Below the pieces are notes generated by a model. That model saw nothing but the letters and a program-made list of their open reading frames with translations. It ran no database searches and was not told the origin of the DNA. Both the position numbers and the translations under genes were made by a program. Positions 7,549 through 53,324 of a stretch of 64,000 bases of DNA are shown here, one piece after another. This DNA comes from Octopus sinensis (lineage: Eukaryota): contig NC_043001.1 in the NCBI RefSeq assembly GCF_006345805.1, forward strand, positions 63,674,001-63,738,000, read 5' to 3'. Within the stretch, counting starts at the first letter, position 1; the number at the start of each line of letters is the position of its first letter.

Positions 7549-8228
7549 TTGATTTAATTTAATCAGGTTAGTTTACCATTAAACAGTAGATGAAACGGTG
7601 CATCGTATAAGAAATTACAGGGTAAATGTTTTTTAATTTTCTCCTGGTTTACGGAATTGATGTTATTTTGCGGTTGAAGCGTTTGGCTGTTATTTCTAGT
7701 GGGTGAATGGCCTATTAGGGCCGTTCCTTGATTGTGATGTTGAACTTAAAAATGGTATATGACTATTTAATTTTTTCCCACTAGGCCGCTGGTGGCAAAA
7801 AAATTCTACAAAATTTTTTTTGCCACCCTATATTGATTAATTATGAATTTTCTGGTTAATTCCGTAATGGAATCGGCGGCTTATATTTATTTGCTGCCGA
7901 TAAATTTGGCGCGAGTGCGATGATTTGAAAATTTTAGGTCAGATATTGCCGAGGCAGGGACGGGAATGCCTCGTGAAAAATATCTGTTCCGACTTGGCTA
8001 TTTCTTACTGATGAATCTAAGGGCCTATAGTAGATTGGCTTGATTTAATTTAATCAGGTTAGTTTACCATTAAACAGTAGATGAAACGGTGCATCGTATA
8101 AGAAATTACAGGGTAAATGTTTTTTAATTTTCTCCTGGTTTACGGAATTGATGTTATTTTGCGGTTGAAGCGTTTGGCTGTTATTTCTAGTGGGTGAATG
8201 GCCTATTATGGCCGTTCCTTGATTGTGA

Positions 8229-8230
<2 letters not shown>
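7549..8230 (+). mobile_element. HHR-bearing non-coding retroelement, family A (491-nt monomer, ~1.4 copies, in (TA)n)
   Basis: 7549-7739 is repeated almost identically at 8040-8230. (TA)n on both sides; internal hammerhead. Confidence 0.8.
8001..8105 (+). ncRNA. Type I hammerhead ribozyme with enlarged stem II (family A)
   Basis: tttctta-CTGATGA-atcta..(insert)..tagat-GAAAC-ggtgcatc-GTA-taagaaa. Perfect 7-bp stem I. Confidence 0.85.
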
Positions 8231-10000: not shown

Positions 10001-10027
10001 TTAAAAAGTTACGTACACTACCAAATT

Positions 10028-10465
10028 GGATTTTTCTAAAAGAAGGCCAGTTTTTTCTAGTTAACTAAATAATTTGAAACTTCGTATACTGGTAGAATGT
10101 GTCAAAAGAAAACATTAATTTCAATTAGTTTTTTGGAGAAAAATGTATTTTCTAACTTTTACGTAGTTTAATTCTTCGAATTTTAACCAATCGTATTCTC
10201 TCTTTTGACCTCAATTCATTTACTGCCGTGTTATTCATCCTTATCAGTCTTCTGTTTTTTGTCTTCAAAGGCTTGTTTATTTCAATGTCATCCCTGACTT
10301 ACGGACCGATTACCTGTGTGTGTGTGTGCGTAAAAGTTAGAAAATACATTTTTCTTCAAAAAACTAATTGAAATTAATGTTTTCTTTTGACACATTCTAC
10401 CAGTATACGAAGTTTCAAATTATTTAGTTAACTAGAAAAAACTGGCCTTCTTTTAGAAAAGATCC
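10028..10465. mobile_element. MITE with ~135-bp TIRs and 8-bp TSD
   Basis: Long near-perfect inverted ends GGAT.../...ATCC. ACCAAATT duplicated at 10020-10027 and 10466-10473. Confidence 0.9.
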
Positions 10466-10899
10466 ACCAAATTTTATAGATGATGTATATGTATTCCGAA
10501 CTATCAAAATAAACGATATTTACACATGAATACATGATCTTACAAGCAGGATACTTACATTTTCGAAAGGTTTTCAAAAGACAACAATTTTAGTTTATGC
10601 AAAAGCAACGCATTTACAACATAACAGCTATTCTGCACAAAGGCTATAAATGTCCATAAAAAGCGTTATTGAAATTCACTGCAAAAATTACTGTAGAAGA
10701 TTATTTCTCGTACAGACATAAGGAGGCACCATTAAACCGTGGCTTTCTGATTTTCAATCTGTAATTTTAAATTCCTTCTTTCTTTCCTCCCAACTTTTTC
10801 TTTGTTTTTCTTTCGCTTAAATCAAGAAATACATACGTGCATGATGTAAATAGACATCGTTCGTGCGTTTGTACTTGTTTTAGCTTTAAAGTTTTAGGA

Positions 10900-10951
10900 T
10901 TAGGGTTAGGGTTAGGGTTAGGGTTTTAAGGTTAGGGTTTTAGGGTTAGGG
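10900..10951 (+). repeat. Interstitial (TTAGGG)n inside a related MITE fragment ending ~11231
   Basis: TTAGGG repeats. The downstream end ...AAAGATCC resembles the TIR of 10028-10465. Confidence 0.7.
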
Positions 10952-11879
10952 TTGTCATAAATAACAGTGACAAACGAAATATACACCGCCGGAAGTTCTT
11001 GTTCACAAACAACAGCAGTAATTTTATTCAGCTGAATACACGTCATTGATTGGTTGAAATTACCGAAATACTACAACTTTAATGTGAAATAACTTCCTAA
11101 ATATAAACGTTTCTCAAAAATGCTAAGAGTAAAAGATGTTTTATATGACACATCCTATCAGTGTGCGAAGTTTGAAAGTGTTTAGTTACAAAAAATATTT
11201 TTTAAATCTGTCGGTCTAACGGTAAAGATCCGATTGATTTCTTTTTCTGAAAGCCCCAACTTATCCAAATTGTCATTTAGGCATTTACTCTTAAAACCAA
11301 ACGCACCAATTATTATTGGTATGAACGTTATAATTTAGGTATGGAAGCTGAAGATTTCGAAGCAATTGCCCACATTTATCCGCTTACTCTTTGATTACCG
11401 AAGAGATATTCACATCAGTAGGGGAGCTGACCTTGATGTTACATACATTTTCTTGACTATACCAAGCAGCATTATCCGGCTTCTTATGTTTGCAGATCAA
11501 GTCCGTTGTTTGGGCATTCGTTCTGTCTGCTTGTGTGTGTGTGTCTTCGAGCATCCTCCATCCGATTGCGCTTAAATTTGATTTGTAGATACCGACGGTA
11601 TCAGGGCGCGTATAAATCTTGAAAAAATTACAAAAATCGATTCCAGGTGAGAATGCGATCGATAAAGCAGTGGAAACGTGCATTTGAACGCGTAAGTACA
11701 TCAGCTGTTGCGATCGATATTACGAGTAGGCGAGAAAACGCACGTGCAGTTTGCGCAAAAAAGCCGGCTGGCTTGAAATAAGGCCACAAAATGGGACGGT
11801 CGGACAAGTTGTTTTGAGAAAATTTGGTTTAAATGTTTGACAACTCAGCACCATCGATTGGACGGGGGGAATTTTGCTC

Positions 11880-13445: not shown

Positions 13446-14566
13446 TGTATGTATGTATGTATGTATGTGTTGTGTGTGTGTATGTGTGTGTGTATGTGTA
13501 TGTATGTATGTGTGTGTGTATGTGTATGTATGTATGTATGTATATATGTATTAAAAGAGGTGTGTATCTTTCTTGGAGTTGGCGGCAAGCTACCAGGAGT
13601 GGGGAGTAGGGAAGAAAGAAAGAGCAAAGAAAGTGAATTTAAAAATAGAAAAAAAGAGAAAGAATTAGAACAACAGCAACAACAACAATTAACTAAGAAA
13701 GAACTTTTGTATGAACATCAATCTCATCATGAGTATTATCATTAACAGGAACAACAACTACAACTGCAATGGCAGTAGCAACAACAGTAGTTGGCGTTCT
13801 GTAGCTGAAATTGTAAATAGATGAGGCAGGAAAAAGTTGTTGGAATGTTTCATTTGTTGGTAGGGTACGTTGCGACGCTGCTGGGGGGGGGGGAGAGCTA
13901 TCAGTGGTGGTGGTTGGGGTTGGGGTGGTGATGGGTATTGATGGTGGCTGTAGCGTTGACTGTGGTGGTTTCAAGATGGGATGAAAGTATACAGCATCAC
14001 CACCAAGCCCACCACCACTACCAACGCCGTCGCCAGTACTGTCGCCACCGCCACCGCTGCCAGCAAGCTATCTTTGGAGCTAGACCAGGAAATCAGATGG
14101 AATAGCAACTATTTAAAGAAGCAGCAGCAAAAGCAGCAACAGAGAAACTAAGATGCTGCTGATAATGCTGTCTTATCCACTTGATGTTACTCAACAAATT
14201 TATTTAGGATCTTTAATCATCATCATCATATAATCAGTAGCAGTAGTACCACCACAACCACAACAACAATCATTATTATCATCATCATCAACAACCACAA
14301 TAACAACAACAACAACAGTGCGATCTAATTCTTTTCTCTTGTATTTAGTTTTTCTTACCGTTTTGTTTTTTCAGGGAAGTTGAAATAAAAAGTAGTTTAT
14401 ATCAAATTCGTTCGTCCTTTCTTAATTTTTTGTCCCTATAGGAAAGGACTGGCTGTAAATATGTGCACTTCATATTTTACATAATCTATCTTGACGACTG
14501 GGATTTGAACCGAAATCAATGAATTCGGTTCAAATCCCGGTGCAGTTACACCTTCCCATCTGGATC

Positions 14567-14613
<47 letters not shown>

Positions 14614-14631
14614 TAATAATAATAATAATAA

Positions 14632-14662
<31 letters not shown>

Positions 14663-14720
14663 AAGAAGAAGAAGAAGAAGAAGAAGAAGAAGAAGAAGAA
14701 GAAGAAGAAGAAGAATGATG

Positions 14721-14782
<62 letters not shown>

Positions 14783-14786
<4 letters not shown>

Positions 14787-16762
14787 TTCCTGCTTCCAAA
14801 AAGTGAAGAAACAAATGAACCAAAAAACGATAGACCCATAACCTGCTTAACAACTATGTATAAAATGTTAACATCTGTCCTGACGGAATATACCTATAGT
14901 TTTTTAACAGACAGCAGCATATTGCCTAATGAACAGAAAGGATGTAAACGTGGATCCTATGGTTGTAAAGATCAGCTACTCATCAATAAGATGATCTTAG
15001 AAGATTGTCACAAACGACACAAAAAATTGTCAATAGCCTGGATAGACTATAAAAAGACTTATGATTGCCTACCACACAACTAGATTAAGAAATGCCTGCA
15101 AATGTATAAAATAGTACCTACTCTGCGAAACCTTTTGTCTGTAAGTATGAGATCATGGAGAACTACACTAACTTTGAACAGTGACAATGAATCTCTAAAT
15201 GCTGGCGATGTAAAAATTTAATGTGGCATTTTCCAGGGTGACTCACTATCACCACTTCTCTTTTGTTTAGCCTTAATACCTCTCTCAAAATTGCTCAATG
15301 ACGCGCAGTACGGATATAAAATGTTTGATAACAATATAAATCATCTCATTTACATGGATGATTTAAAGCTCTTTGCAAAAAATGACCAACAACTCAAGGG
15401 CTTACTAGCGATTGTTAAACAATTTAGTGATTACATCAGGATGCAATTTGGCCTCGATAAATGTGCAAAAGCTACCTTTATCAAAGGAAAAATGACAGAA
15501 AAATCTGACGTTAACATTGACCAGCAGCATGTCATAAAAGAGTTGGACTCAGCGGAGAGCTACAAGTACCTAGGGGTAATTGAAGGGGACGGAATAAGGC
15601 ACTCGGTGATGAAGGAACGGATCAGGAGAGAATGTTATCGCAGAGTAAGAGCAATACTCAAGACAGAGCTGAATGCGAGAAACAGGATCGAAGCGATCAA
15701 TGCTTTAGCCATACCAGTCGTGCCTTACAGTTTCAATATCGTTAACTGAACAATTACTGAAATATGTAATCTTGACAGAAAAATACGAAAACTGTTGACA
15801 ATGCATAGAATGCACCACCCTAAGGCAGATATAGAACGACTTTATCTGCCAAGAAAAGAGAAAGGCCGTGGACTTTTACAACTTGCAATAACAATGAAGA
15901 TTGCTACAATTGGCCTAGACACCTACCTGAAAAACTCTGAGGACTGGATGTTAAAACTTTTCTCAAAACATGAAAACAAGAAAGCATCATACTCAGTAAC
16001 AAAACAGGCTACGGAATATCTAAGTGAAATCCGAATACAACAAATTCCGGAATTAGACATAAAAGAAACAAGCACAGAAAAAGCTAAGCGCATGAAAACC
16101 CGTGCTAAAACTACTGCCTTAGATATTCTGAGTGATAAATGGCAAGAAAAACCTCTCAATGGCAAATACCCAAAGAGAGCGAATAATGCCGATGTTGACA
16201 AAGCCCTGACCCATCAATGGCTAATGGCCTCTGGCTTAAAATCTGAAACAGAAGGGTTTGTCATAGCAGCTCAGGATCAATGCCTACCTTCAAGGAACTA
16301 ACAGGCCAACATATTAAAGAACGGCAGTAGCCCAACATGTCGTGTATGTCAACAACAAAATGAAACCATTGATCATGTTGTCTCCAAGTGCAGTCTTTTT
16401 GCGCCTACAGAGTATCTCAACAGGCATGATAGAGCTGCACAATATATTCACTGGGTAATTTGCAAAAACCTGGACTTGCCCCATGAAAATAACTGGTGGG
16501 AACACAAACTACCTCCAGTGCTTGAAAATGACCGCATCTCACTCCTCTGGAACTTCACCACTCAAACTGACAGAAAGATAGATGCAAATAGGCCAGACAT
16601 CATATCGAAAGACTTCAGACAAAGAACATGCCTCCTTATTGATATGACTGTCCCAATCGATATATCTGTCAAGACCTACCAAAAACTGAGCAAATATAAA
16701 GATCTTGAAATAGAAATCAGCAAAATGTGGAACCAGAAGACTAAAACAATACTTGTTGTCAG
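14783..16762 (+). mobile_element. R4/Dong-type non-LTR retrotransposon (RT plus restriction-like endonuclease), truncated at both ends
   Basis: RPITCL, EQKGC, WIDYKK, GIFQGDSLSP, YMDDLK, YKYLG, CRVC..ETIDHVVSKC, RHD, RPDI..D..K..KY. In-frame stops. Begins directly at (TAA)n. Confidence 0.92.
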
Positions 16763-19700
16763 CACTTCCGTGTCTGTAAAGCTCCCCGGTACCACTGCCA
16801 GGTCAGGGATTTCTGGAAATTATCTAAAGGCCACGGCCCAGAAGTCCTCCGGAAAAAAAAACCAGTTAGTTGATCTCTCCCGACACCCGGAGTCTCCCTG
16901 AGTACGTCGTCGCTCTTTTCCTCCAGGTGGAGATTGTCGTGGATAGAACTTTTCCCCCATAGAACTCTATAGTGGAACTTCCACCGACCACATTGTCGAC
17001 ACTCCAGATGCCATGCACCCTTTCTTGCTCTACGCTTGATCCAGGACTGTAGTTCTGTCAATGAGACGAGCTGCGGAAAATCCTGTGTGACAAACGGTGA
17101 CCACACCTGCTCGTGGCCGCCGTTTGTCATACAGGATTTTCCGCACTAGTGATGACGCTGCCTCAACGCGTGTCTGCTCTTGATAGCAGATGAACCGTCT
17201 GATGAACGGAACACGTCCCTTCCACAGAAAGCGGAAGAGCAAGCGCTCCAGCTTAATCAGCCACGAAGCAGAGCAAGGGACGACGGTCAGGTAGTAGTAG
17301 TAGATGACGGAAGCGATGTACGCATTTGCCACCTCCGCCGGACCTTCAAGGGTAGCTTCCTCTCTGCCCACTTCTGGGTGAGATTGGCCCCCCTGCTCGT
17401 CACCCCCCCCAGTTCTTGTTCACCTGGAAGTCCAGGCCGAACTAGATCCCAAAGCATTTTAACCGGTCCTTCCGTCCAGCGCCCTACAACGCTATCGGTT
17501 GGCACGGATCTGTCTCTCTAGGTGCAGAGATGCAGGCCCACCGAATTGTCCTGATTAAATTTTGCTGTTATCACCGCTTCGTATTCCCTTAAAGTAGCGC
17601 CGATCACCTCGATTTCCGACACTATTACGGTGACATCGTCTGCATATGCCGACACGAAACCTCCGTATCTTAGATCAAGCGGGATGCCCCTCGAAATATC
17701 CAACTTCCTAAGTAATGGCTTGAGAGCACAGAAGGGGAGAGAGTGCCAAACGATTCCGATAGGCGGCCGTCCACTTTGACCACCGAACAGATGTCGCTTA
17801 CATTGCAGCGATCCAGCCTCTGAAAACAGGTGTACAAGCTCTGAAAACAGAATCCTCTTGCCGCTGCGAGGACATCCTCCAAGTATTGATGGTCGACCCT
17901 GTCAAAAGCTTTCGATTGATCCAAATTGATCAGGGCCCCACCCATGCCAAGTTCCTTCCTTACTCTTTCTATGCTGTAGCGCATGGGGTGGAGATTGTCG
18001 TGGATAGAACTTTTTCGGGATTGTGCATGTCTGAGCGTCACCGACCGGCTTATCAACGACAAGGCCAAAATCTTATAATCTGCGTTATTGGCCTAAAATT
18101 ATCTAATTGGTCCCCCTTGTTCGGGTTCTTTTTCAGCAACACCATATGCCACGGCTCTCAGCACTGGGTATTCTCCCGTTCTGCTGCCAGTTGTGGTAGA
18201 CATCTGCCAAGAAATCTCCGAACATGTCTGGCATATAAAGATAAATCTGCAAGGGTAGACCATCCAGCCCTAGAGACTTCTCCCTTGTGAAGCTCGTCAT
18301 CGCGTCCCGTATGCCTTCGGCTGTTAGCATTTCGCAGAACTCCGTATCCCTGGCCGAAATCTACCGCCATTCCCGGCACACAGCGCGCCCCGAACAGTTC
18401 GGCGAATTGCCGCTGAAACTCCATACACATCTGCTTGGATTCGTGTAGCATACGCCCGTCCCCGGCCCGTCAAAGACCGAATTGTGGTTATGTTGCTACG
18501 TTGCACCTTTGCCACCAGGGCCCATCGAACAGCTCGTCTCCTCATGTCTTAGGGCATGCACCCTAGCTCTGACGACACAACCTTCATGCTTGGTATTGAA
18601 GAATTGATCAAGAGCCAATCTCACCGCCATCACGTCAGTCACAATGTCGCTCCTAAGCGCCACATCTAGCTTCCTATCTAGCTCTTTCTTTATCCTAGAT
18701 TCCTCTAAGGCTATTTCCTTACTAGATCCTACTGCCCCTACTCTAATAGTCCTCTTCAGGGCTATCCACCAACTGTTGTTGACGATTGTGCCTGCCAACT
18801 TCTGATGGACTAACTTGTTAACCTGGTTTCTGAATGCTTGACGCGCTGAGAAAGACACGTTCATCTTCCAGTGCCCGGGGCCCGGCCTGTGGACCTTATC
18901 TAGCTCGACCGTACAGATCACAAATTTGTGGCCTGTGTAGCCGACGAGTGAACAACTTATGCTACTTTTATCGACTGGCCTACAGAATATCCTATCTAAA
19001 TACGATCTGGAAGACCAGGTGTTGTTCGCCCATGTCCACATCGGCGCGTTCGGGAAGTCCAGTCGATACCTGTCAGCCAATTGGAAACGACTGAGCAGGT
19101 TTCTGAGGTTTTTGCACCCACCTCTCATATCGGCTAGCCCAACCTATCCAAGTGTGCATCCAAAATGGCGTTCCAATCGCCCACTAGAACTAAAGTGCGA
19201 GATGTCCCAAGGAAAACCTCCAAACGTCCTAAAGAAATCTGGCTTCCCCACCCCAGTTGGGCGACTGATCTGAAAGTACCACCTTCGCTGTTGTTCACAT
19301 CCAGGACCATCAGCATACCTTCCAGGTCTAGGAAGATCGTCCGTACCTCGATATCCAGGTTTTTACAAAACAGCACTACCACCCCACCCCCACCCATCAA
19401 TTCAGGCCGACTAAGAGATACGTAGATCTCGAAATCGTCAAAAGTGGGGACTAGATCGGATAATCCTGCTTTTGCTGACGGCTGTCACATCCCAAGATAG
19501 TGACCTAAGGTCGTTGAGCAAGCAACCCTGCTCCCAGGGCGACCCCAGGCCACGAATATTTATACTACCTCCACTTAAACATCCCCGAACAGAATTTAGA
19601 GAAGAAACAAAGAAGCGCCTACTTACCACTCGGATGTCACTGGAGGTCAGGTGGCTCAGTGTCCCTTTAAAAGCCTAATCGTGGTCTTTACAGTAGGGAT

Positions 19701-29811: not shown

Positions 29812-30187
29812 ATATATATATATTATATTATATATATATTATATATCACGTGATCACGTGACCGACCAGACCATCAGATGTTGCTACACATCGCTGGTCA
29901 CAATGCGTTCGCATTGTTTTAGCCTTAGAATGACGCCACCCCGCTGGCTAAGCGAGCAGGCCAACAGAAGAAAGAGTGGTGAAAGAGTACAGTGTTTGTC
30001 CCCCTAGCATTCCTTGACAACCGATGCTGGTGTGTTTATGTCCCCGTCACTTAGCGGTTCGGCAAAAGTGACCGATAGAATAAGTACTGGGCTTACAAAA
30101 GAATAAGTCCCGGGGTCGAGTTGCTCGATTAAAGGCGGTGCTCCAGCATGGCCGCAGTCAAAACTGAAACAAGTAAAAGAGTAAAGA

Positions 30188-30240
<53 letters not shown>

Positions 30241-30291
30241 TATATATATTATATATATTAATATATTATATAATATCTATATAATATATAT

Positions 30292-30334
<43 letters not shown>

Positions 30335-30450
30335 CTCTCTCTCTACATATATATATATTATATATATATCTATAATATATATTATATATTATATATATAT
30401 ATATATTATATCTCTCACTCTACAATATATATATTATATATATATCTATA

Positions 30451-30496
<46 letters not shown>

Positions 30497-30741
30497 ATAT
30501 ATTATATATTATAATATATATATATATATATTATATTAATATAATATATATATTATATATAATATATATATTATATATATATATATATATAAAATAAATA
30601 TAAGAGAGTGGTCACTATATGGCTCACTCTAGCACCAGTTAATCCAAAAGGTTTCAACCACAAAAATATGTTTCCCATGAAAGTCAGTACGATTGTTAGC
30701 TCACACGGACAGGGCAAATAAAAAATACAAAATACAGATTA

Positions 30742-30822
30742 TTTTGGGACAATTGTTTCGCTATTAATGAATTAAATGTATTTTACTTACAAAAAAATCC
30801 ACTTGTAGCTCGTCAGCCAAAA
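30742..30822 (-). ncRNA. Type I hammerhead ribozyme (family B)
   Basis: Minus strand: ttttgg-CTGACGA-gcta..tagc-GAAAC-aatt-GTC-ccaaaa. Confidence 0.85.
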
Positions 30823-31268
30823 CTATCTGGATGAAATCCACTCAATCACACGCCAGATTTTACCATAACGATAAATACGTGTGTGGTTCAATTGATTACA
30901 TCCGACGTTATAATTCAAATGCCCCAACTAACAGCGCGCCAACTTTCACGAAAACAAATACTGCATTTAGAAATAAATGCAGCATAATTATAATTAATTA
31001 ATAGGGTGAGAGAATTAGATACTAATTTAATAGTATATCTATTCAACACCAAGTGGCCTAGTGCTCCGAGAAACCTGGATTATTATAATATTTTATAATA
31101 TATTATAATTTTTACAAAATAAATATAAGAGAGTGGTCACTATATGGCTCACTCTAGCACCAGTTAATCCAAAAGTTTCAACCACAAAAATACATGTTTC
31201 CCATGAAAGTCAGTACGATTGTTAGCTCACACGGACAGGGCAAATAAAAAATAACAAAATACAGATTA

Positions 31269-31350
31269 TTTTGGGACAATTCTTTCGCTATTAATGAATT
31301 AAATGTAATTTTACTTACAAAAAAATCCACACGTAGCTCGTCAGCCAAAA
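31269..31350 (-). ncRNA. Type I hammerhead ribozyme (family B), stem III variant
   Basis: Same motif with GAAAG instead of GAAAC. Confidence 0.65.
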
Positions 31351-31453
31351 CTATCTGGATGAAATCCACGTCGGATGTAATCAATTGAACCACACGCGTA
31401 TTTATCGTTATGGTAAAATCTGGCGTGTGATTGAGTGGATTTCATCCAGATAG

Positions 31454-31535
31454 TTTTGGCTGACGAGCTACAAGTGGATTTTTTTGTAAGTAAAATTACA
31501 TTTAATTCATTAATAGCGAAACAATTGTCCCAAAA
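31454..31535 (+). ncRNA. Type I hammerhead ribozyme (family B)
   Basis: ttttgg-CTGACGA-gcta..tagc-GAAAC-aatt-GTC-ccaaaa; palindromic ACAATTGT stem III. Confidence 0.88.
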
Positions 31536-31828
31536 TAATCTGTATTTTGTTATTTTTATTTGCCCTGTCCGTGTGAGCTAACAATCGTACTGACTTTCAT
31601 GGGAAACATGTATTTTTGTGTGTTGAAACCTTTTGATTAACTGGTGCTAGAGTGAGCCATATAGTGACCACTCTCTTATATTTATTTTGTAAAAATATTA
31701 TAATATATTATAAAATATTATAATAATCCAGGTTTCTCGGAGCACTAGGCCACTTGGTGTTGAATAGATATACTATTAAATTAGTATCTAATTCTCTCAC
31801 CCTTATAATTAATTATATATATATATAT

Positions 31829-31881
<53 letters not shown>

Positions 31882-31911
31882 ATATATTATATATATATAT
31901 TATTATATATA

Positions 31912-31977
<66 letters not shown>

Positions 31978-32042
31978 ATATATAGATATATATATAATAT
32001 ATATATATGTAGAGAGAGAGATATAAATAATATATATATATA

Positions 32043-32078
<36 letters not shown>

Positions 32079-32365
32079 GATAATATTATATATATAGAGA
32101 TATATATATAATGTATATATATGTAGAGAGAGAGATATAATATATATATATATATATATCTTCTTCCATTTTCCTGAGCGCCTAATAATAATAATTATTA
32201 AGTGACGGGGACATAAACACACCAGCATCGGTTGTTTAATTGTTCCACGTGTTGTTGTTTTTTCTGTTTTCCCGTTTGGATTAACCTTATATATATATAT
32301 ATAATATATTATATCTCTCTCTCTACATATATAATATATTATATATATCTATTTATATATATATA

Positions 32366-32611: not shown

Positions 32612-32905
32612 TATTATATTATAATATATATATATATATAGATATATATACATATAATATATATATAAATAGATATATATATAATATATATATATGTAGA
32701 GAGAGAGAGATATAATATATATAATATATATATATATATAAGGTTAATCCAAACGGAAAACAGAAAAAAAACAACAACACGTGGAACAATTAAAGTATTA
32801 TTATTATTAGGCGCTCAGGAAAATGGAAGAAGATATATATATAATATATATTATATCTCTCTCTCTACATATATATACATTATATATATATCTCGATATA
32901 TATAT

Positions 32906-33799: not shown

Positions 33800-33852
<53 letters not shown>

Positions 33853-34043
33853 TTAATCCAAACGGGAAAACAGAAAAAACAACACACGTGGAACAATTAA
33901 AGTATTATTATTATTAGGCGCTCAGGAAAATGAAGAGAGAAGATATATATATATATATACAATATCTCTCTCTACATATATATATATATTATATATATAT
34001 ATTTATATATATATATCTATATATATATATATTATATATAATA

Positions 34044-34610: not shown

Positions 34611-34911
34611 TGGCGCGAGTGCGATGATTTGAAAATTTTAGGTCAGATATTGCAGAGACAGTAGTGGAACTGCCTCGTGTAAATATCTGCCCCGATCTGG
34701 CTGACTTTACTGATGAATCTACCGGCCTATGGAAGATTAGCTTGATTTAATTTAATCAGGTTGATTTACCATTAAAGAATAGACGAAACGATGCATCGTA
34801 TAAAGTATTACAGGGTAAATGTTTTTTAAATTTTCTCCTGTTTACGGAATTAATTGTTTTGCGGTTGAAGCTTTGGCTGTTATTTCTAGTGGGTTGAATG
34901 GCCTATTATGC
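34611..34911 (+). mobile_element. Diverged partial copy of HHR element family A in (TA)n
   Basis: Aligns by eye to ~7907-8210. Confidence 0.85.
34704..34806 (+). ncRNA. Type I hammerhead ribozyme with enlarged stem II (family A)
   Basis: acttta-CTGATGA-atcta..tagac-GAAAC-gatgcatc-GTA-taaagt; perfect palindrome ACGATGCATCGT. Confidence 0.85.
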
Positions 34912-34931
34912 TATATATTATATATATATAG

Positions 34932-35104: not shown

Positions 35105-35301
35105 TATATATAAATATATATATATACATATATATATAATATATAGCATAATAGGCCATTCAACCCACTAGAAATAACAGCCAAAGCTTCAACCGCAAAA
35201 CAATATTAAAACAGTTTCGCCATGGGCTCTTAGGAGCACAGTTCGATTTGTTTTTTGCTCCGCCTCTGTTCTGTTTTTGTGTTTCCAACGGATTTCCTTT
35301 T

Positions 35302-35389
35302 TTCTTCCTGATGAGAAAGACACAATATGGTCCCATTATTCAATCGGATTTTGGTAATTTGTGCCTTTCGAAACACGTGTAGAATGAAA
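35302..35389 (+). ncRNA. Type I hammerhead ribozyme (family C)
   Basis: ttcttc-CTGATGA-gaaagacacaa..ttgtgcctttc-GAAAC-acgt-GTA-gaatgaa, followed by AATAAA. Confidence 0.8.
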
Positions 35390-35539
35390 TAAAACGATTT
35401 CTGTTCAATCTGCGTTCAGCTCCATTTCTTCAATTCACCAATAATGTTTTATATATATATATATATATATTATTTAATTATATATTATATATCTATATTA
35501 TATATATATAATATATATATATATTATATATTAGAATAT

Positions 35540-35602: not shown

Positions 35603-37129
35603 GAAAACTGAAGGAAGGTAAAATATGCCCCATTCATAAAGGAGGTAGCAGAGCGGAAGCCAAGAACTATAGACCTATCTCTCTGACCTCACACATCAGC
35701 AAGGTCATGGAACGAATAGTCAGAAGGAAGCTGATCACCTTTCTTGAAGAGAATGACTTGCTGCCCGACACCCAACATGGTTTCCGACCAGGGAAAATCT
35801 GTTTAACTCAGCTCCTACAACACTATGACTGGGTGCTGAAACGGCTGCTCAACCACTCAAATGTGGAAGTGATATATCTCGACTTTGCAAAGGCCTTTGA
35901 TAAAGTCGATCATGGAATGATATGTCACAAACTACGTGATCTCAACATAGTTGGAAAACTGGGAGAATGGCTTCATGACTTTCTGAAAGATAGAAGTCAG
36001 GTGGTAGTGGCCAATGGGGCCACTTCCATTAACACGCAAATAGTGAGTGGTGTTCCGCAGGGCACTGTTCTGGGACCACTACTGTTCATAATGGCCCTTT
36101 CAGACATGCCCTCAGCCACGCAGAGAGCAACGATCACAAGTTATGCAGATGATACAAAAGTTTCACAGGCAATACAGAACCCTGAGGACACTAAACACCT
36201 GCAATGTGAGCTAGACAAAATATACAAGTGGGCCGAAAAGAATAGCATGCAGTTCAATGCTGAAAAGTTTCAAGCTCTATACTATCAGCATGCAAAACTA
36301 AATGCAATACCCAATGAATACACTGGACCCGGAGGAATAGCAATCCCAGAGGCACAATCAGTGCGTGACCTAGGTATTTACATGAGTGATGACGCGACCT
36401 TTCGTGTACATGTTGCTAAATTGGCAATGAAATGTAGACGACTGGCCGGATGGATCCTCAGAACCTTTAGAACAAGAAACCATGATGGTCCTCTGGAGGA
36501 CACTTGTCCTAAGCCACTTTGACTACTGCTCTCAGTTATGGTCACCATCCAGTGTCAAGTTGATCGCAGAGCTCGAGGCGATCCAACGTAGCTACACGAA
36601 GAAGATAGCTTCTATGCAGAATGTAAGCTACTGGGAAAGACTCAAGAGATTAAAACTATATTCCCTGGAGCGTAGGCGGGAAAGATATGCCATAATATAC
36701 ATCTGGAAGATCCTGGAGGGACGTGTCCTGAACTTTGGCATCGAGAGTTACGCAAATGCCAGAACTGGGCGCCACTGCGTGGTGCCTAGGACTCCAAACT
36801 TGCCATCAAGATGTAGGACAAGATTCTGTGATAGCCTGGGCTTCCGAGGCCCACAGCTCTTCAATATCCTACCGAAGAACCTGAGAGACCTGCATGGGGT
36901 GGATGCAGATGTCTTTAAAATGAAGCTGGATCTCTTCCTGTCAGGTGTCCCAGATGAACCAACTTCACGGCAGGAGGTGCAGATGAGGGCAGCTGCATCG
37001 AACTCTCTCATGCACCAATGGCAGTTGCTAGAAAGCTTTCGTGAAGTGAAACCAAGTAGCAACACCAAATGGCGGTGCCCCAGCATGGCCACAGCTCATA
37101 AGCTGAAACTAGAATCAATCAATCAATCA
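35603..37129 (+). mobile_element. 5'-truncated CR1-group LINE (RT, one frameshift near 36477) with (ATCA)n tail, inserted in (TA)n
   Basis: NYRPISLTS, QHGFR, YLDFAKAFDKVDH, SGVPQGTVLGPLLF, YADDTK, VRDLGI, LERRR. Confidence 0.95.
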
Positions 37130-38272: not shown

Positions 38273-38311
<39 letters not shown>

Positions 38312-38394
38312 GGTCCCGGGTTGATCCGGGGTTAACCACAGTAAGTAAGGTACTCAATACATAGCAGAGTAAAATTAATTTATTATATAGAAGG

Positions 38395-38445
38395 AGCTTC
38401 TACAGGACTAGTACTGTTTCATTCAAGAGAAATCTTCAGGAAGCT
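38395..38445 (-). ncRNA. Type I hammerhead ribozyme (family D)
   Basis: Minus strand: agcttc-CTGAAGA-tttctcttgaat-GAAACAG-tactagtc-CTGTA-gaagct, then AATAAA. Stem II is weak. Confidence 0.75.
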
Positions 38446-38780
38446 ATTTAACAAGAATTGTATTAGCATTTATACATTTAGGCAGGTTTAAAGGAGTGGT
38501 GGTGGGGGACTTTTTTGGGGGTAGGCATAGCGCAAAATATCATACTTGGGGGAGTGGTCAAGGAGTCAGTGGTAAGTTAGATGAAAGAATAGATAAATAA
38601 AAAAATAAAAAAATATTTTTTTATTTTTTTATTTATCTATCTTTCATCTAACTTACCACTGACTCCTTGACCACTCCCCCAAGTATGATATTTTGCGCTA
38701 TGCCTACCCCCAAAAAAGTCCCCCACCACCATCCTTTAAACCTGCCTAAATGTATAAATGCTAATACAATTCTTGTAAAT

Positions 38781-38832
38781 AGCTTCCTGAAGATTTCTCT
38801 TGAATGAAACAGTACTAGTCCTGATAGAAGCT
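38781..38832 (+). ncRNA. Inverted copy of the family D hammerhead (1-nt insertion near the cleavage site)
   Basis: Mirror arm of a palindrome centred at ~38614. Confidence 0.6.
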
Positions 38833-38900
38833 CTTCTATATAATAAATATATATTATATATATATATATTATATACACACTCACACTCAGCACGCGCACG

Positions 38901-39608: not shown

Positions 39609-39733
39609 ATATATATATAATATATATATATATATAATATATAAAATATTATTAGAGACAAAACCACTATTTTGCAAAACAACAAGGAAAGACTTAATTA
39701 ATACATAAAATTTTAATAAATAGTCAAAAAAAG

Positions 39734-39776
39734 CCACTACAATTGTTTCTTGTCTTGATCGACAATCTTCAGGTGG
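39734..39776 (-). ncRNA. Minimal type I hammerhead (family E)
   Basis: Reverse complement of ccac-CTGAAGA-ttgtc-gatcaa-gacaa-GAAAC-aatt-GTA-gtgg. Confidence 0.9.
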
Positions 39777-39815
39777 ACTTCCAATAAGTCAGTTTCAAAT
39801 TATGAACTGAAAAGT

Positions 39816-39858
39816 CCACCTGAAGATTGTCGATCAAGACAAGAAACAATTGTAGTGG
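39816..39858 (+). ncRNA. Minimal type I hammerhead (family E)
   Basis: ccac-CTGAAGA-ttgtc-gatcaa-gacaa-GAAAC-aatt-GTA-gtgg; perfect stems I and II, palindromic stem III. Confidence 0.92.
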
Positions 39859-40116
39859 CGGTTTTTTTGACTATTTATTAAAATTTTATGTATTGATAAG
39901 TCTTTCTTGTTTGTTTTGCAAACTAGTGGTTTTGTCTCTAATAATATTTTATAATATTTTACTATAAAATTGGATTTAATCCTAAATCTGATTTTTTCCC
40001 TGTAAATTTGGATTATTCTTCTAATATTTATTATTTAATATAATATATATATATATATATAATATATATAATATATATATATATATATAATATATATATC
40101 ATATATATATATATAT

Positions 40117-40570: not shown

Positions 40571-40734
40571 ATAATATATATATATATTAATATATATATA
40601 TATATATATAATATAATATAAATATTATATCTATAATATATAAAAATTATTAGAGACAAAACCACTATTTTGCAAAACAAACAAGGAAAGACTTAATTAA
40701 TACATAAAATTTTAATAAATAGTCAAAAAAACCG

Positions 40735-40777
40735 CCACTACAATTGTTTCTTGTCTTGATCGACAATCTTCAGGTGG
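40735..40777 (-). ncRNA. Minimal type I hammerhead (family E, duplicate)
   Basis: Identical motif in the direct duplicate ~1001 bp downstream. Confidence 0.85.
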
Positions 40778-40816
40778 ACTTCCAATAAGTCAGTTTCAAA
40801 TTATGAAACTGAAAGT

Positions 40817-40859
40817 CCACCTGAAGATTGTCGATCAAGACAAGAAACAATTGTAGTGG
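40817..40859 (+). ncRNA. Minimal type I hammerhead (family E, duplicate)
   Basis: Identical motif. Confidence 0.85.
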
Positions 40860-41051
40860 CGGTTTTTTTGACTATTTATTAAAATTTTATGTATTGATTA
40901 AGTCTTTCCTTGTTTGTTTTGCAAACTAGTGGTTTTGTCTCTAATAATATTTTATAATATTTTACTATAAAATTGGATTTAATCTAAATCTGATTTTTTC
41001 CCTGTAAATTTGGATTTATTCCCTAATATTTATTATTTATATAATATATAT

Positions 41052-51330: not shown

Positions 51331-51855
51331 TTAATACAATGCTACATCGTTGTAAGCATCGTCTAAATCTTTAATGAGTTGGTTATATTTATCCTTCTCT
51401 TCGTTCAATGAGACTTCCATTTTCTCCAGATCTTCTTCCAGTTTGGTCACCGTTCGTTCGGCGTTTGTTGCCCTCAACTCGGCTTCCTTCAGCTTCTCCT
51501 GGTTTGTTACTTCTTCGGTCTTTTTCACAGACAAAGCTTCATCACTTCTCTCAAGTTGTAACTCCAACATTTGTATCCTCCTTTGCAAGTTCTGGATCTC
51601 TGTATCACACTCGCTAACTCTTTCTTCGGCGTAGTGCATCATGTCCTGGGCTTTAGACAGGTCATTGTTCACAGTATCCAGTTCTTTCTCCATGTTAGAA
51701 TATTTCTTTTGTAACCAGTTCAGTTCCTCATCCAAGCGGCCTCTTTCGGTCTCGGTGGACTTCAGTTTTTCCTCAATGACCTCCACCTTGTCCATAGCAG
51801 TTTCTTTGGCCACTCTGATGGCCTGGACTTTTTTCAGATATGTGTCACGATCCAT
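51331..51855 (-). CDS. Short intronless tropomyosin-like coiled-coil protein (174 aa)
   Basis: KKVQAIR start, LQRRIQMLELQLERS (cf. LNRRIQLLEEDLER), KLKEAELRATNAERTVTKLE (cf. [20 protein letters not shown]). GCCATGG Kozak context; uninterrupted ORF. Confidence 0.85.
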   Translation of the reverse strand: MDRDTYLKKVQAIRVAKETAMDKVEVIEEKLKSTETERGRLDEELNWLQKKYSNMEKELDTVNNDLSKAQDMMHYAEERVSECDTEIQNLQRRIQMLELQLERSDEALSVKKTEEVTNQEKLKEAELRATNAERTVTKLEEDLEKMEVSLNEEKDKYNQLIKDLDDAYNDVALY

Positions 51856-53324
51856 GGCTAAAGTTTACTGTCAATCGGAGAAGAAAGAAAGTTTATTAAA
51901 AATTCCACTCGAAGGAACCGGTTCGAGTTGAGAAGAAACGAAGAAAACGCACTCCGCTCTCTGGCTGCAGAAATATGGAACTGAGAGAATTGTCTTCCGA
52001 CTGGCAGTACACCTGCTACTACTCAGCTGTCTTCACCCCTTCCTTCCTCTCAAGCATTACCTCCTCCCTTATCTCTTTTACTGTACATCACCCCACCGCC
52101 ACTCATGTAGATAAATGAGGGTGAGGGGGTACGAAGAGTTCTCAACCCCATCCCTTCTTCTATTAGTTAATATGGTTAATACTAAGGTAGAGGCAGCAGT
52201 GGCGGTGAAACTCATTACTCATTTATTTATTTATTTAGTCTTACAGCGAAGTTTCAGTTTTTATTTAATTATTTATTATTATTATTATTTCTTTTTTTTT
52301 TGTATTTCCATATTTTTATTGGTGAAACAAACCTCTTTACTTTGTTCCGCAACTATTCACCCATACATACACACTCTCTTTCTCTGCCCCCTCTCTTTCA
52401 TTCTCCCTCTCAAATCACGCGCGCGCACATGCACAAACACACATTTATGTAAACAGAGAGCACTCTTTAAAAGGATGACGAGGTGAGATGGCTGGGTATA
52501 TGTATATCTAGACGCACCCGTACATATACATTCATAAAACATACATACATACATACATACATATGTGTGTGTATCTATCTATCTATTTTATATGTGTGTG
52601 TGTGTATTATGGGAAGGGGTTTATTCATTAGTTTGGGTGAGAGGCAGTGAGAGAGAATAAAGGCGTGTACGTCTGGAGACGTGATGATGTAAAAGGTGGA
52701 GGGTGGGATTAAAATATTGGCAACAGTCAGTTGCAGTTATCTCCCTTTAATCAATTTTCAGCTAAAACCAAACTTATTATTATTTTTTTTTCGTTAAATT
52801 TACATTCTTGGAGTCGAAGAATTATTTGAACATTGGACAAAATGTCTTCTGGCATTTGTTTGCTTTTTACGTTCTGAATTCACTTCCTATGGAGGGCATC
52901 TTAGCCTTTCACCCCTAAAGTGTTGATAGATTAAACTCGTTAGTAGCTAAGCACTGGGGGTTAATTTAAACGTTATTAATGGGCTACCTTGTTACAGTAG
53001 GACCTAACTATTTCCCATGTAGTAGGGTTCCGGCTACAGGTGAAGTGGTGTACAGGGCCAGATACACTGCAAGACACCATTATTATCAGTAGAACCGTCA
53101 ATTATTGTCAACACATCATTTTCACACACACACACGCACATACACATCCCCCCGCACAACATAAAGCTTATTATTCACCGCATATACTGACACCAACACA
53201 CATACATGTTATCAATCGTACACACACACACACGTACACAGGTACAAAGACATACTATCATTCACACATACATACACATCATAAAGCGGGCCACATTATT
53301 CAGACTGTATCACACACACATGTA

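Follow-up and report, generated by a model that had tools for sequence, protein, structure and literature searches.

Layout of the family B locus

The window analysed here, a stretch of 64,000 nt (64 kb), is eukaryotic and AT-rich, and abounds in microsatellites, LINE fragments and SINE pieces. Repeat families were delimited by masked self-BLAST of the window, an unmasked repeat search having been swamped by microsatellites. One of these families, family B, occupies a single locus, with no further copy found in the 64-kb window, and consists of a 1.48-unit tandem on the minus strand (unit 527 nt) that meets an inverted arm of 0.85 unit head-to-head, the whole lying inside (TA)n. The features of the locus are the following:

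30186 to 30590, no strand: left (TA)n-rich target flank
30591 to 30841, minus strand: copy 1 of the direct repeat (segment B1), similar to a pseudo-LTR and bordered at its 3' end by (TA)n, some 157 nt downstream of the cut
30741 to 30823, minus strand: hammerhead 1 (type I, intact), with its core from 30816 and its cut predicted after 30748; stem I has 7 bp and can be extended, stem II has 50 nt, and stem III is palindromic
30842 to 30908, minus strand: segment C of 67 nt, lying upstream of the hammerhead and found again as the inverted repeat's spacer
30909 to 30989, minus strand: segment D, 81 nt, single copy; predicted long-range helix with segment B in the monomer RNA
30990 to 31113, minus strand: segment A of 124 nt, lying downstream of B and supplying the inverted arm with its tail
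31005 to 31185, minus strand: structured domain common to family A, with 23 shared predicted pairs and 3 double plus 2 single changes
31114 to 31369, minus strand: copy 2 of the direct repeat (segment B2), whose 5' truncation coincides with the inversion junction
31268 to 31351, minus strand: hammerhead 2 (type I), with its core from 31344 and its cut predicted after 31275; its stem III palindrome is interrupted at 31282
31368 to 31369, no strand: head-to-head junction with 2-nt microhomology, where the arms meet by their 5' ends
31368 to 31815, plus strand: inverted 5'-truncated copy C-B-A, 0.85 unit; one-sided tail reaching about 125-129 nt further 3' than copy 1
31453 to 31536, plus strand: hammerhead 3 (type I, intact), with a stem II of 51 nt and its cut predicted after 31529; fold z -5.87 sense and -2.10 antisense
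31816 to 32140, no strand: right (TA)n-rich target flank; no specific mirror of the left flank and no definable target-site duplication

Read in the ribozyme sense, the left arm (779 nt) runs B2-A-D-C-B1 on the minus strand before entering (TA)n, and the right arm (448 nt) runs C-B-A on the plus strand, again into (TA)n. The inverted arm aligns to 30989-31369 with 373 of 384 matching, and to 30581-30908 with 321 of 332. Segment C is absent from copy 2 and segment D from the inverted arm. A previous sequence-only reading of this DNA had held that the path of the inverted arm is nowhere contiguous in the left arm; this is indeed so, because copy 2 stops 67 nt short of a C-B-A path. A linear sequence of 846 nt (a partial tandem of 1.61 units) is, however, long enough to contain both arms. 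The predicted cut site is crossed three times in family B, and all three crossings are identical downstream, without a scar.

The same reading had assigned to the inverted arm the alleles of copy 1 instead of those of copy 2, and this did not hold. When the aligned differences among copy 1, copy 2 and the arm were grouped by us into events, the shared segment of about 255 nt gave nine, of which the arm agrees with copy 1 in three and with copy 2 in three, the last three being private to the arm. The only substitution sites are the two that had been cited, and both are changes private to copy 2; the remaining seven events are indels of 1-2 nt. Two near-identical duplicates elsewhere in the window differ by 9 indel events and 2 substitutions per 393 columns and, because the rate in family B equals this one, its seven indels may be sequencing noise. 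At one of the substitution sites copy 1 and the arm retain the palindromic stem III, as in family C, a state that is probably ancestral and would thus be uninformative on templating. The 3:3:3 star of differences would fit one insertion event. The other change, a 2-nt substitution private to copy 2 (31325-31335), gives it a context that now resembles the inversion junction 35 nt away, possibly by templating and possibly by chance.

Two further observations concern the surroundings of the junction and of the locus. The truncation points (31353-31382) sit on two sides of one predicted RNA stem, and a 10-nt word recurs at 9 of 10 positions across the junction; post hoc, one may imagine that two cDNA ends could have paired at this word. 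The locus itself is located between the CT/AG markers of palindromic TA arrays, in which a repeat of about 95 nt, family G, is also embedded (32141-32290, minus strand; 32740-32835 and 33850-33945, plus strand).

Hammerhead motifs and predicted folds of the unit RNA

A descriptor scan found 10 hammerhead motifs in the window, three of them at family B, compared with 0-2 per shuffle in 20 shuffles. The family B motifs have the core, the stems I and II and the short palindromic helix III of a type I hammerhead, intact in two of the three copies and with one helix III pair broken in the other. The predicted minus-strand cuts, after 30748 and 31275, lie 527 nt apart, in agreement with the spacing given in the earlier reading, from which hammerhead 3, on the plus strand of the inverted arm, was absent. 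The enlarged stem II of about 50 nt, also noted there, was found again as an irregular hairpin of 50-51 nt; stem II measures 51 nt in family B, 68 nt in family A and 55 nt in family F. The canonical hammerhead helix II has 4 bp, from which the 51-nt stem of family B departs. No match to the Rfam hammerhead families was obtained at E <= 1 for the window or at E <= 10 for the locus, and the long stem II may explain this; the Rfam matches that were obtained were microRNA-like only, at hairpins and microsatellites, and were dismissed as chance.

The 8 nt of stem III form a palindrome, and the stem is able to pair only if two ribozymes meet. In copy 2, which was passed over by the strict descriptor, a C-to-G change at 31282 breaks this palindrome and weakens the dimer helix III to -3.3 kcal/mol, compared with -6.4 kcal/mol for the intact form. 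Predicted pairing probabilities in family B are at least 0.96 for stem I and at least 0.86 for stem II. In the lowest-energy fold, the catalytic core is itself partly paired; the hammerhead fold is 4.6 kcal/mol costlier, and forced pairing of both left-arm stems III costs 6.9 kcal/mol. The hammerhead would probably process tandem transcripts as a dimer, and weakly, and processing by the family B locus itself is probably impaired because one dimer partner is mutated. The earlier proposal that double cleavage releases a unit monomer is made doubtful by the dimer dependence of the hammerheads and the broken stem III of copy 2. A read-through transcript of 30591-31815, in either direction, is predicted to form a hairpin with more than 400 long-range pairs; such a hairpin is a possible small-RNA or editing substrate and would also block hammerhead folding.

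The 527-nt unit is non-coding: its six-frame translation is stop-rich, its three longest frames gave no match in Pfam, and no coding remnant was found within it, so that the single ORF with telomerase-like RT and GIY-YIG of an autonomous PLE is missing from family B. As in non-LTR retrozymes, the non-coding monomer is low in GC (32%) and highly self-paired in its predicted fold (69% paired, z -4.7 to -6.4 in the sense direction). The antisense monomer reaches z -4.1 to -5.3 with 55% paired and, being strong too, led us to drop the fold z-score as evidence on the strand. A long-range helix of about 50 nt is predicted between segments D and B (30907-30956 with 31195-31255), with an energy of -30.9 kcal/mol in sense versus -19.4 kcal/mol in antisense; most of its component helices have P 0.94-1.0 and the last 0.77. 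Together with stem I, this helix brings the predicted monomer ends together. Linear and circular monomer folds fall in the same energy range.

Families A and B are homologous, with a local score of 82 versus a null of 28.6 +/- 3.8 (maximum 45, 200 shuffles) and 71.4% identity over 262 columns. When the two were folded independently, 23 of the 63 family A pairs in aligned columns recurred exactly in B, with 3 double (compensatory) and 2 single changes, a count based on two sequences and predicted folds and excluding the MAFFT alignment, which misregistered one helix. The antisense control gave 8 recurring pairs out of 51, and neutral simulations (n = 40) a mean of 2.7 shared pairs (maximum 11), with double changes numbering at most 2. 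The 3' end of family A, at +132 from the cut, aligns to +157 of B, where copy 1 ends at +158, and the inverted arm ends just past another hairpin shared by A and B. A second family A copy ends about 20 nt earlier, and hence the 3' end site is not absolute. The structured domain (31005-31185) is a candidate binding or start region for a reverse transcriptase.

Comparison with other families and published elements

Three other families of the window bear on the layout of family B:

7551 to 8230 (plus), 34612 to 34918 (plus) and 35139 to 35204 (minus): family A, hammerhead with a 68-nt stem II
39655 to 40030, duplicated at 40632 to 41035 (1 kb apart): family C, head-to-head hammerhead pair in (TA)n
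38310 to 38850: family E, head-to-head pair in (TA)n; a palindrome of 440 nt, near-perfect and spacerless, one of its arms being longer by about 80 nt

At 7551-8230 family A is a direct partial tandem in (TA)n with a unit of 491 nt. The family C duplicates (39655-40018 and 40653-41021) differ almost only by indels, and two arm-to-arm substitutions are kept in both; this duplication is either real or an uncollapsed assembly. The hammerhead-like core of family E was read by eye and failed the descriptor. When the 3' ends are placed at the last G/C before the microsatellite and counted from the cut, each head-to-head locus has a short and a long end: +83/+167 and +86/+168 in C, +10/+92 in E and +144/+273 in B. 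The stretch 35139-35450 is a head-to-head chimera made of an exact inverted copy of a nearby family A end and of family F, whose hammerhead has a 55-nt stem II and its cut at 35381.

In the published descriptions of PLE insertions, partial tandems bear at their 5' end a 5'-truncated copy in inverted orientation, one end has a tail of 30-40 bp and (TA)n serves as target; non-autonomous derivatives are also described (Craig et al., PMC8557442). A pair of direct pLTRs and a single inverted one, mostly head-to-head and also around captured sequence, were reported by Arkhipova et al. (PMC3846280), and hammerheads of the dimer type, whose helix III is palindromic and which form opposite-strand pairs separated by 100-700 bp, by Cervera and de la Pena 2014 (PMC4209133), who proposed circular templates for more-than-unit copies. 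Purified PLE protein was shown in vitro to cleave AT-rich DNA, to initiate reverse transcription internally at two sites and to extend both strands, unprocessed RNA being the main substrate and hammerhead cleavage dispensable (Frangieh et al., PMC11167929).

We compared family B with endonuclease-bearing PLEs (Penelope/Poseidon, Neptune and Hydra clades; for example Pen2a_Av of Adineta vaga and PAc of Anolis). Like these, family B has two direct repeats, here the pseudo-LTRs of the partial tandem B2-A-D-C-B1, an adjacent inverted 5'-truncated head-to-head copy (31368-31815), a microhomology junction, a repeat-borne type I hammerhead whose helix III is palindromic, and an AT-rich target, both ends of the locus lying in (TA)n. 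Unlike these, it is without an RT/GIY-YIG ORF and has a unit of 527 nt, its tail, one-sided and drawn from downstream of the repeat as described for PLEs, is about 125-129 nt long versus 30-40 nt, and its stem II has 51 nt versus 7-8 bp; its inverted copy is 67 nt longer at the 5' side than the adjacent direct copy, whereas in Pen2a_Av it is shorter.

Animal non-LTR retrozymes (coral, mussel, axolotl, Xenopus) share with family B a non-coding unit with a type I hammerhead, the low GC, the self-paired predicted monomer, the tandem organisation and a presumed dependence on PLEs; retrozymes have been linked to PLE pLTRs (Li et al., bioRxiv 10.64898/2026.07.22.740005). The two cores lie 527 nt apart; family B, however, has only 1.48 units and no long array, one helix III variant and a long stem II. 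Its unit is outside the 170-400 nt of the circular RNAs described from animal retrozymes (Cervera and de la Pena 2020, PMC7229834) and within the 51-972 nt of the bioRxiv survey. It also has an inverted arm, and the word 'inverted' occurs 0 times in PMC7229834. For Octopus vulgaris, 31 recently active PLE families are reported in PMC13282606, and 'retrozyme' and 'ribozyme' do not occur in that article. Among the listed titles and beginnings of abstracts from mainly non-subscription literature, no paper on cephalopod retrozymes was found.

The tandem-plus-inverted layout of PLEs and the idea of a circular or multimeric template are already published (PMC8557442, PMC3846280, PMC4209133). What is new here is the homology of families A and B, their shared and covarying predicted fold, their common 3' end position and the unusually long stem II.

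Origin of the locus and competing explanations

We consider it probable that the family B locus is a recent insertion of a non-autonomous, Penelope-type, non-LTR-retrozyme-like retroelement, moved in trans by a PLE RT/GIY-YIG protein. Such an insertion would begin with a more-than-unit RNA, presumably transcribed from the element and highly folded by prediction. An endonuclease would then cut both strands of a (TA)n tract, which is the target seen at the locus, in the manner suggested by the in vitro work (PMC11167929). Reverse transcription would be primed by each free 3' end within the RNA, at an AU-rich site that directly follows a conserved hairpin on its 3' side; the observed ends place these sites at about +157 and +280 from the cut, the former conserved in family A. 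Both cDNAs read through the hammerhead sites without a scar and, because of this, their template would be an uncleaved multimer or a re-ligated circle. Finally, both cDNAs would stop early and be joined head-to-head at the 2-nt microhomology observed at 31368-31369.

This origin by PLE-mediated insertion is favoured by families C and E, which are likewise head-to-head pairs in (TA)n with a short and a long end. It is also favoured by the direct partial tandem of family A, the homology of A and B and their common 3' end position, the scarless cut-site crossings, the non-coding unit, the 3:3:3 star of differences, the in vitro behaviour of a PLE (PMC11167929) and the recently active PLE families of Octopus vulgaris (PMC13282606). 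Counted against it are the overlong tail, a unit above 170-400 nt, the missing Rfam match, the lowest-energy fold that pairs the core, the cost of pairing the left-arm stems III, the strong antisense z and the single family B locus, as well as the missing autonomous partner: among the 107 of 198 window ORFs that were scanned, the other 91 being of low complexity, there was no GIY-YIG or PLE-specific match.

In L1 twin priming, cDNAs started from two target ends become joined head-to-head through microhomology, as we propose for family B, and they copy two non-overlapping parts of one RNA. Unlike this, both family B arms contain B and A, and therefore a multimer, a circle or two RNAs would be needed. 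The earlier conclusion that a circular or multimeric template is implied is accordingly kept in part: if RNA was the template of the arms, it must have exceeded one unit, but circularity is not implied, because the 846-nt linear tandem holds both arms. An uncleaved tandem transcript as template has our confidence at a level slightly short of even, and a circle, overall, is a tentative possibility that we hold clearly less likely.

A rolling-circle mode, in which a single circular RNA of 527 nt is reverse transcribed from both target ends, would be a special case of PLE-mediated insertion, with which its probability overlaps, and is given the same low standing as the circular template in general. 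It would account for the seamless cut-site crossings and for the different phase of the two arms, and it is in keeping with a predicted monomer whose ends are juxtaposed by stem I and the B-D helix and with the circular RNAs shown for other animal retrozymes (PMC7229834). A linear template suffices, however, and linear and circular folds do not differ in energy range; one circle predicts identical copies, but copy 2 has two private substitution sites. A mosaic of copy 1 and copy 2 that switches at the cut site fits 4 of 6 informative events, but with P = 0.34 this is not significant and was set aside. Published in vitro data also weigh against a circle, since purified PLE used unprocessed RNA (PMC11167929) and only 1 of 9 frog retrozyme dimers was cleaved (bioRxiv 10.64898/2026.07.22.740005). 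The locus alone is no proof of a circular RNA step.

We also considered that the inverted arm arose by self-priming or a DNA-level fold-back, an origin that we regard as doubtful. A longer left arm would have been turned into a palindrome; copying would have ended at the AT-rich boundary between A and D and returned to (TA)n, and 67 nt would have gone missing beside the centre. Alternatively, copying would have switched between the direct repeats. The sequence-only reading had dismissed a simple fold-back, rightly in that the arm is no plain mirror of the present left arm, yet a palindrome minus 67 nt at one side of its centre gives the same sequence. The near-perfect, spacerless palindrome of family E points in this direction, self-priming has been proposed for head-to-head PLE repeats (PMC3846280), and exact local inverted DNA copies lie nearby, 32199-32235 of 30017-30053 (SINE) and 35139-35204 of 34853-34918, which count against PLE-mediated insertion. 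A fold-back, however, requires two or three ad hoc steps and leaves unexplained the one short and one long end in B, C and E; the right flank is no mirror of the left (rank 11 of 22 tracts), and a fold-back of the whole locus including its flanks was rejected (ranks 11 of 22 and 14 of 22). An assembly or read artefact, namely a fold-back chimera in this (TA)n-rich region, is very improbable. The differences are mostly indels of 1-2 nt, and the near-identical family C duplicates, differing almost only by indels, suggest a noisy long-read consensus; but a chimera would mirror adjacent sequence, and here copy 2 lacks segment C, the arm lacks segment D and the flanks are unmirrored. Moreover, substitution differences are present and the layout recurs in other hammerhead families.

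The features that most deserve attention are the length of stem II, the length of the tail and the domain of covarying pairs beside a conserved 3' end. How PLEs complete their transposition, what the hammerhead does and where the inverted copies come from are presented as open questions in PMC8557442 and PMC11167929, and a 527-nt element with conserved fold and 3' end position and two defined ends may serve as a tool for the study of RT recruitment, internal initiation and circle-versus-multimer templating. More speculatively, and with less confidence than for a circular template as such, families A and B might form an undescribed octopod clade of circular retrozyme RNAs of about 500 nt, whose hammerheads have a long stem II and whose covarying domain attracts a Penelope RT and sets its start sites, the locus then being two cDNAs made from both target ends on one circle. 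If true, this clade would be a minimal natural substrate for how the tandem and inverted structures of PLEs form, which the literature describes as unresolved.

The search for family B in bacterial and archaeal genomes returned 11 loci, all of them 20-22 nt matches without wider similarity, mostly to one coding motif, and these were put down to chance. Elsewhere in the window, an uninterrupted 174-aa tropomyosin-like ORF (51334-51864, minus strand; Pfam E 1.5e-20) had no match at E <= 1e-20 in a near-length protein search, and it was uninformative on the host lineage. Broken LINE fragments lie at 14523-16900 (plus), 17000-19150 (minus) and 35605-37050 (plus), with RT domains found by Pfam in the first and third; they may be Dong/R4-, L1/Tx1- and CR1-like. 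Among the 120 listed of 1049 matches to a LINE RT fragment, a protein of Octopus vulgaris had the highest identity (79%, across 78% of the query). The SINE presumably resembles octopus SINEs; these two resemblances would suggest, tentatively, that the window probably comes from an octopod. The 37-nt SINE piece at 32199-32235, inside a family G copy, has 2 and 4 mismatches to two other SINE copies besides its exact inverted match at 30017-30053; we read it as a locally templated insertion. A MITE-like pair of 138-nt inverted repeats (99%) with a 165-nt spacer, without a hammerhead and outside (TA)n, lies at 10027-10466, and a short interstitial run of telomere-type hexamers at 10900-10955.
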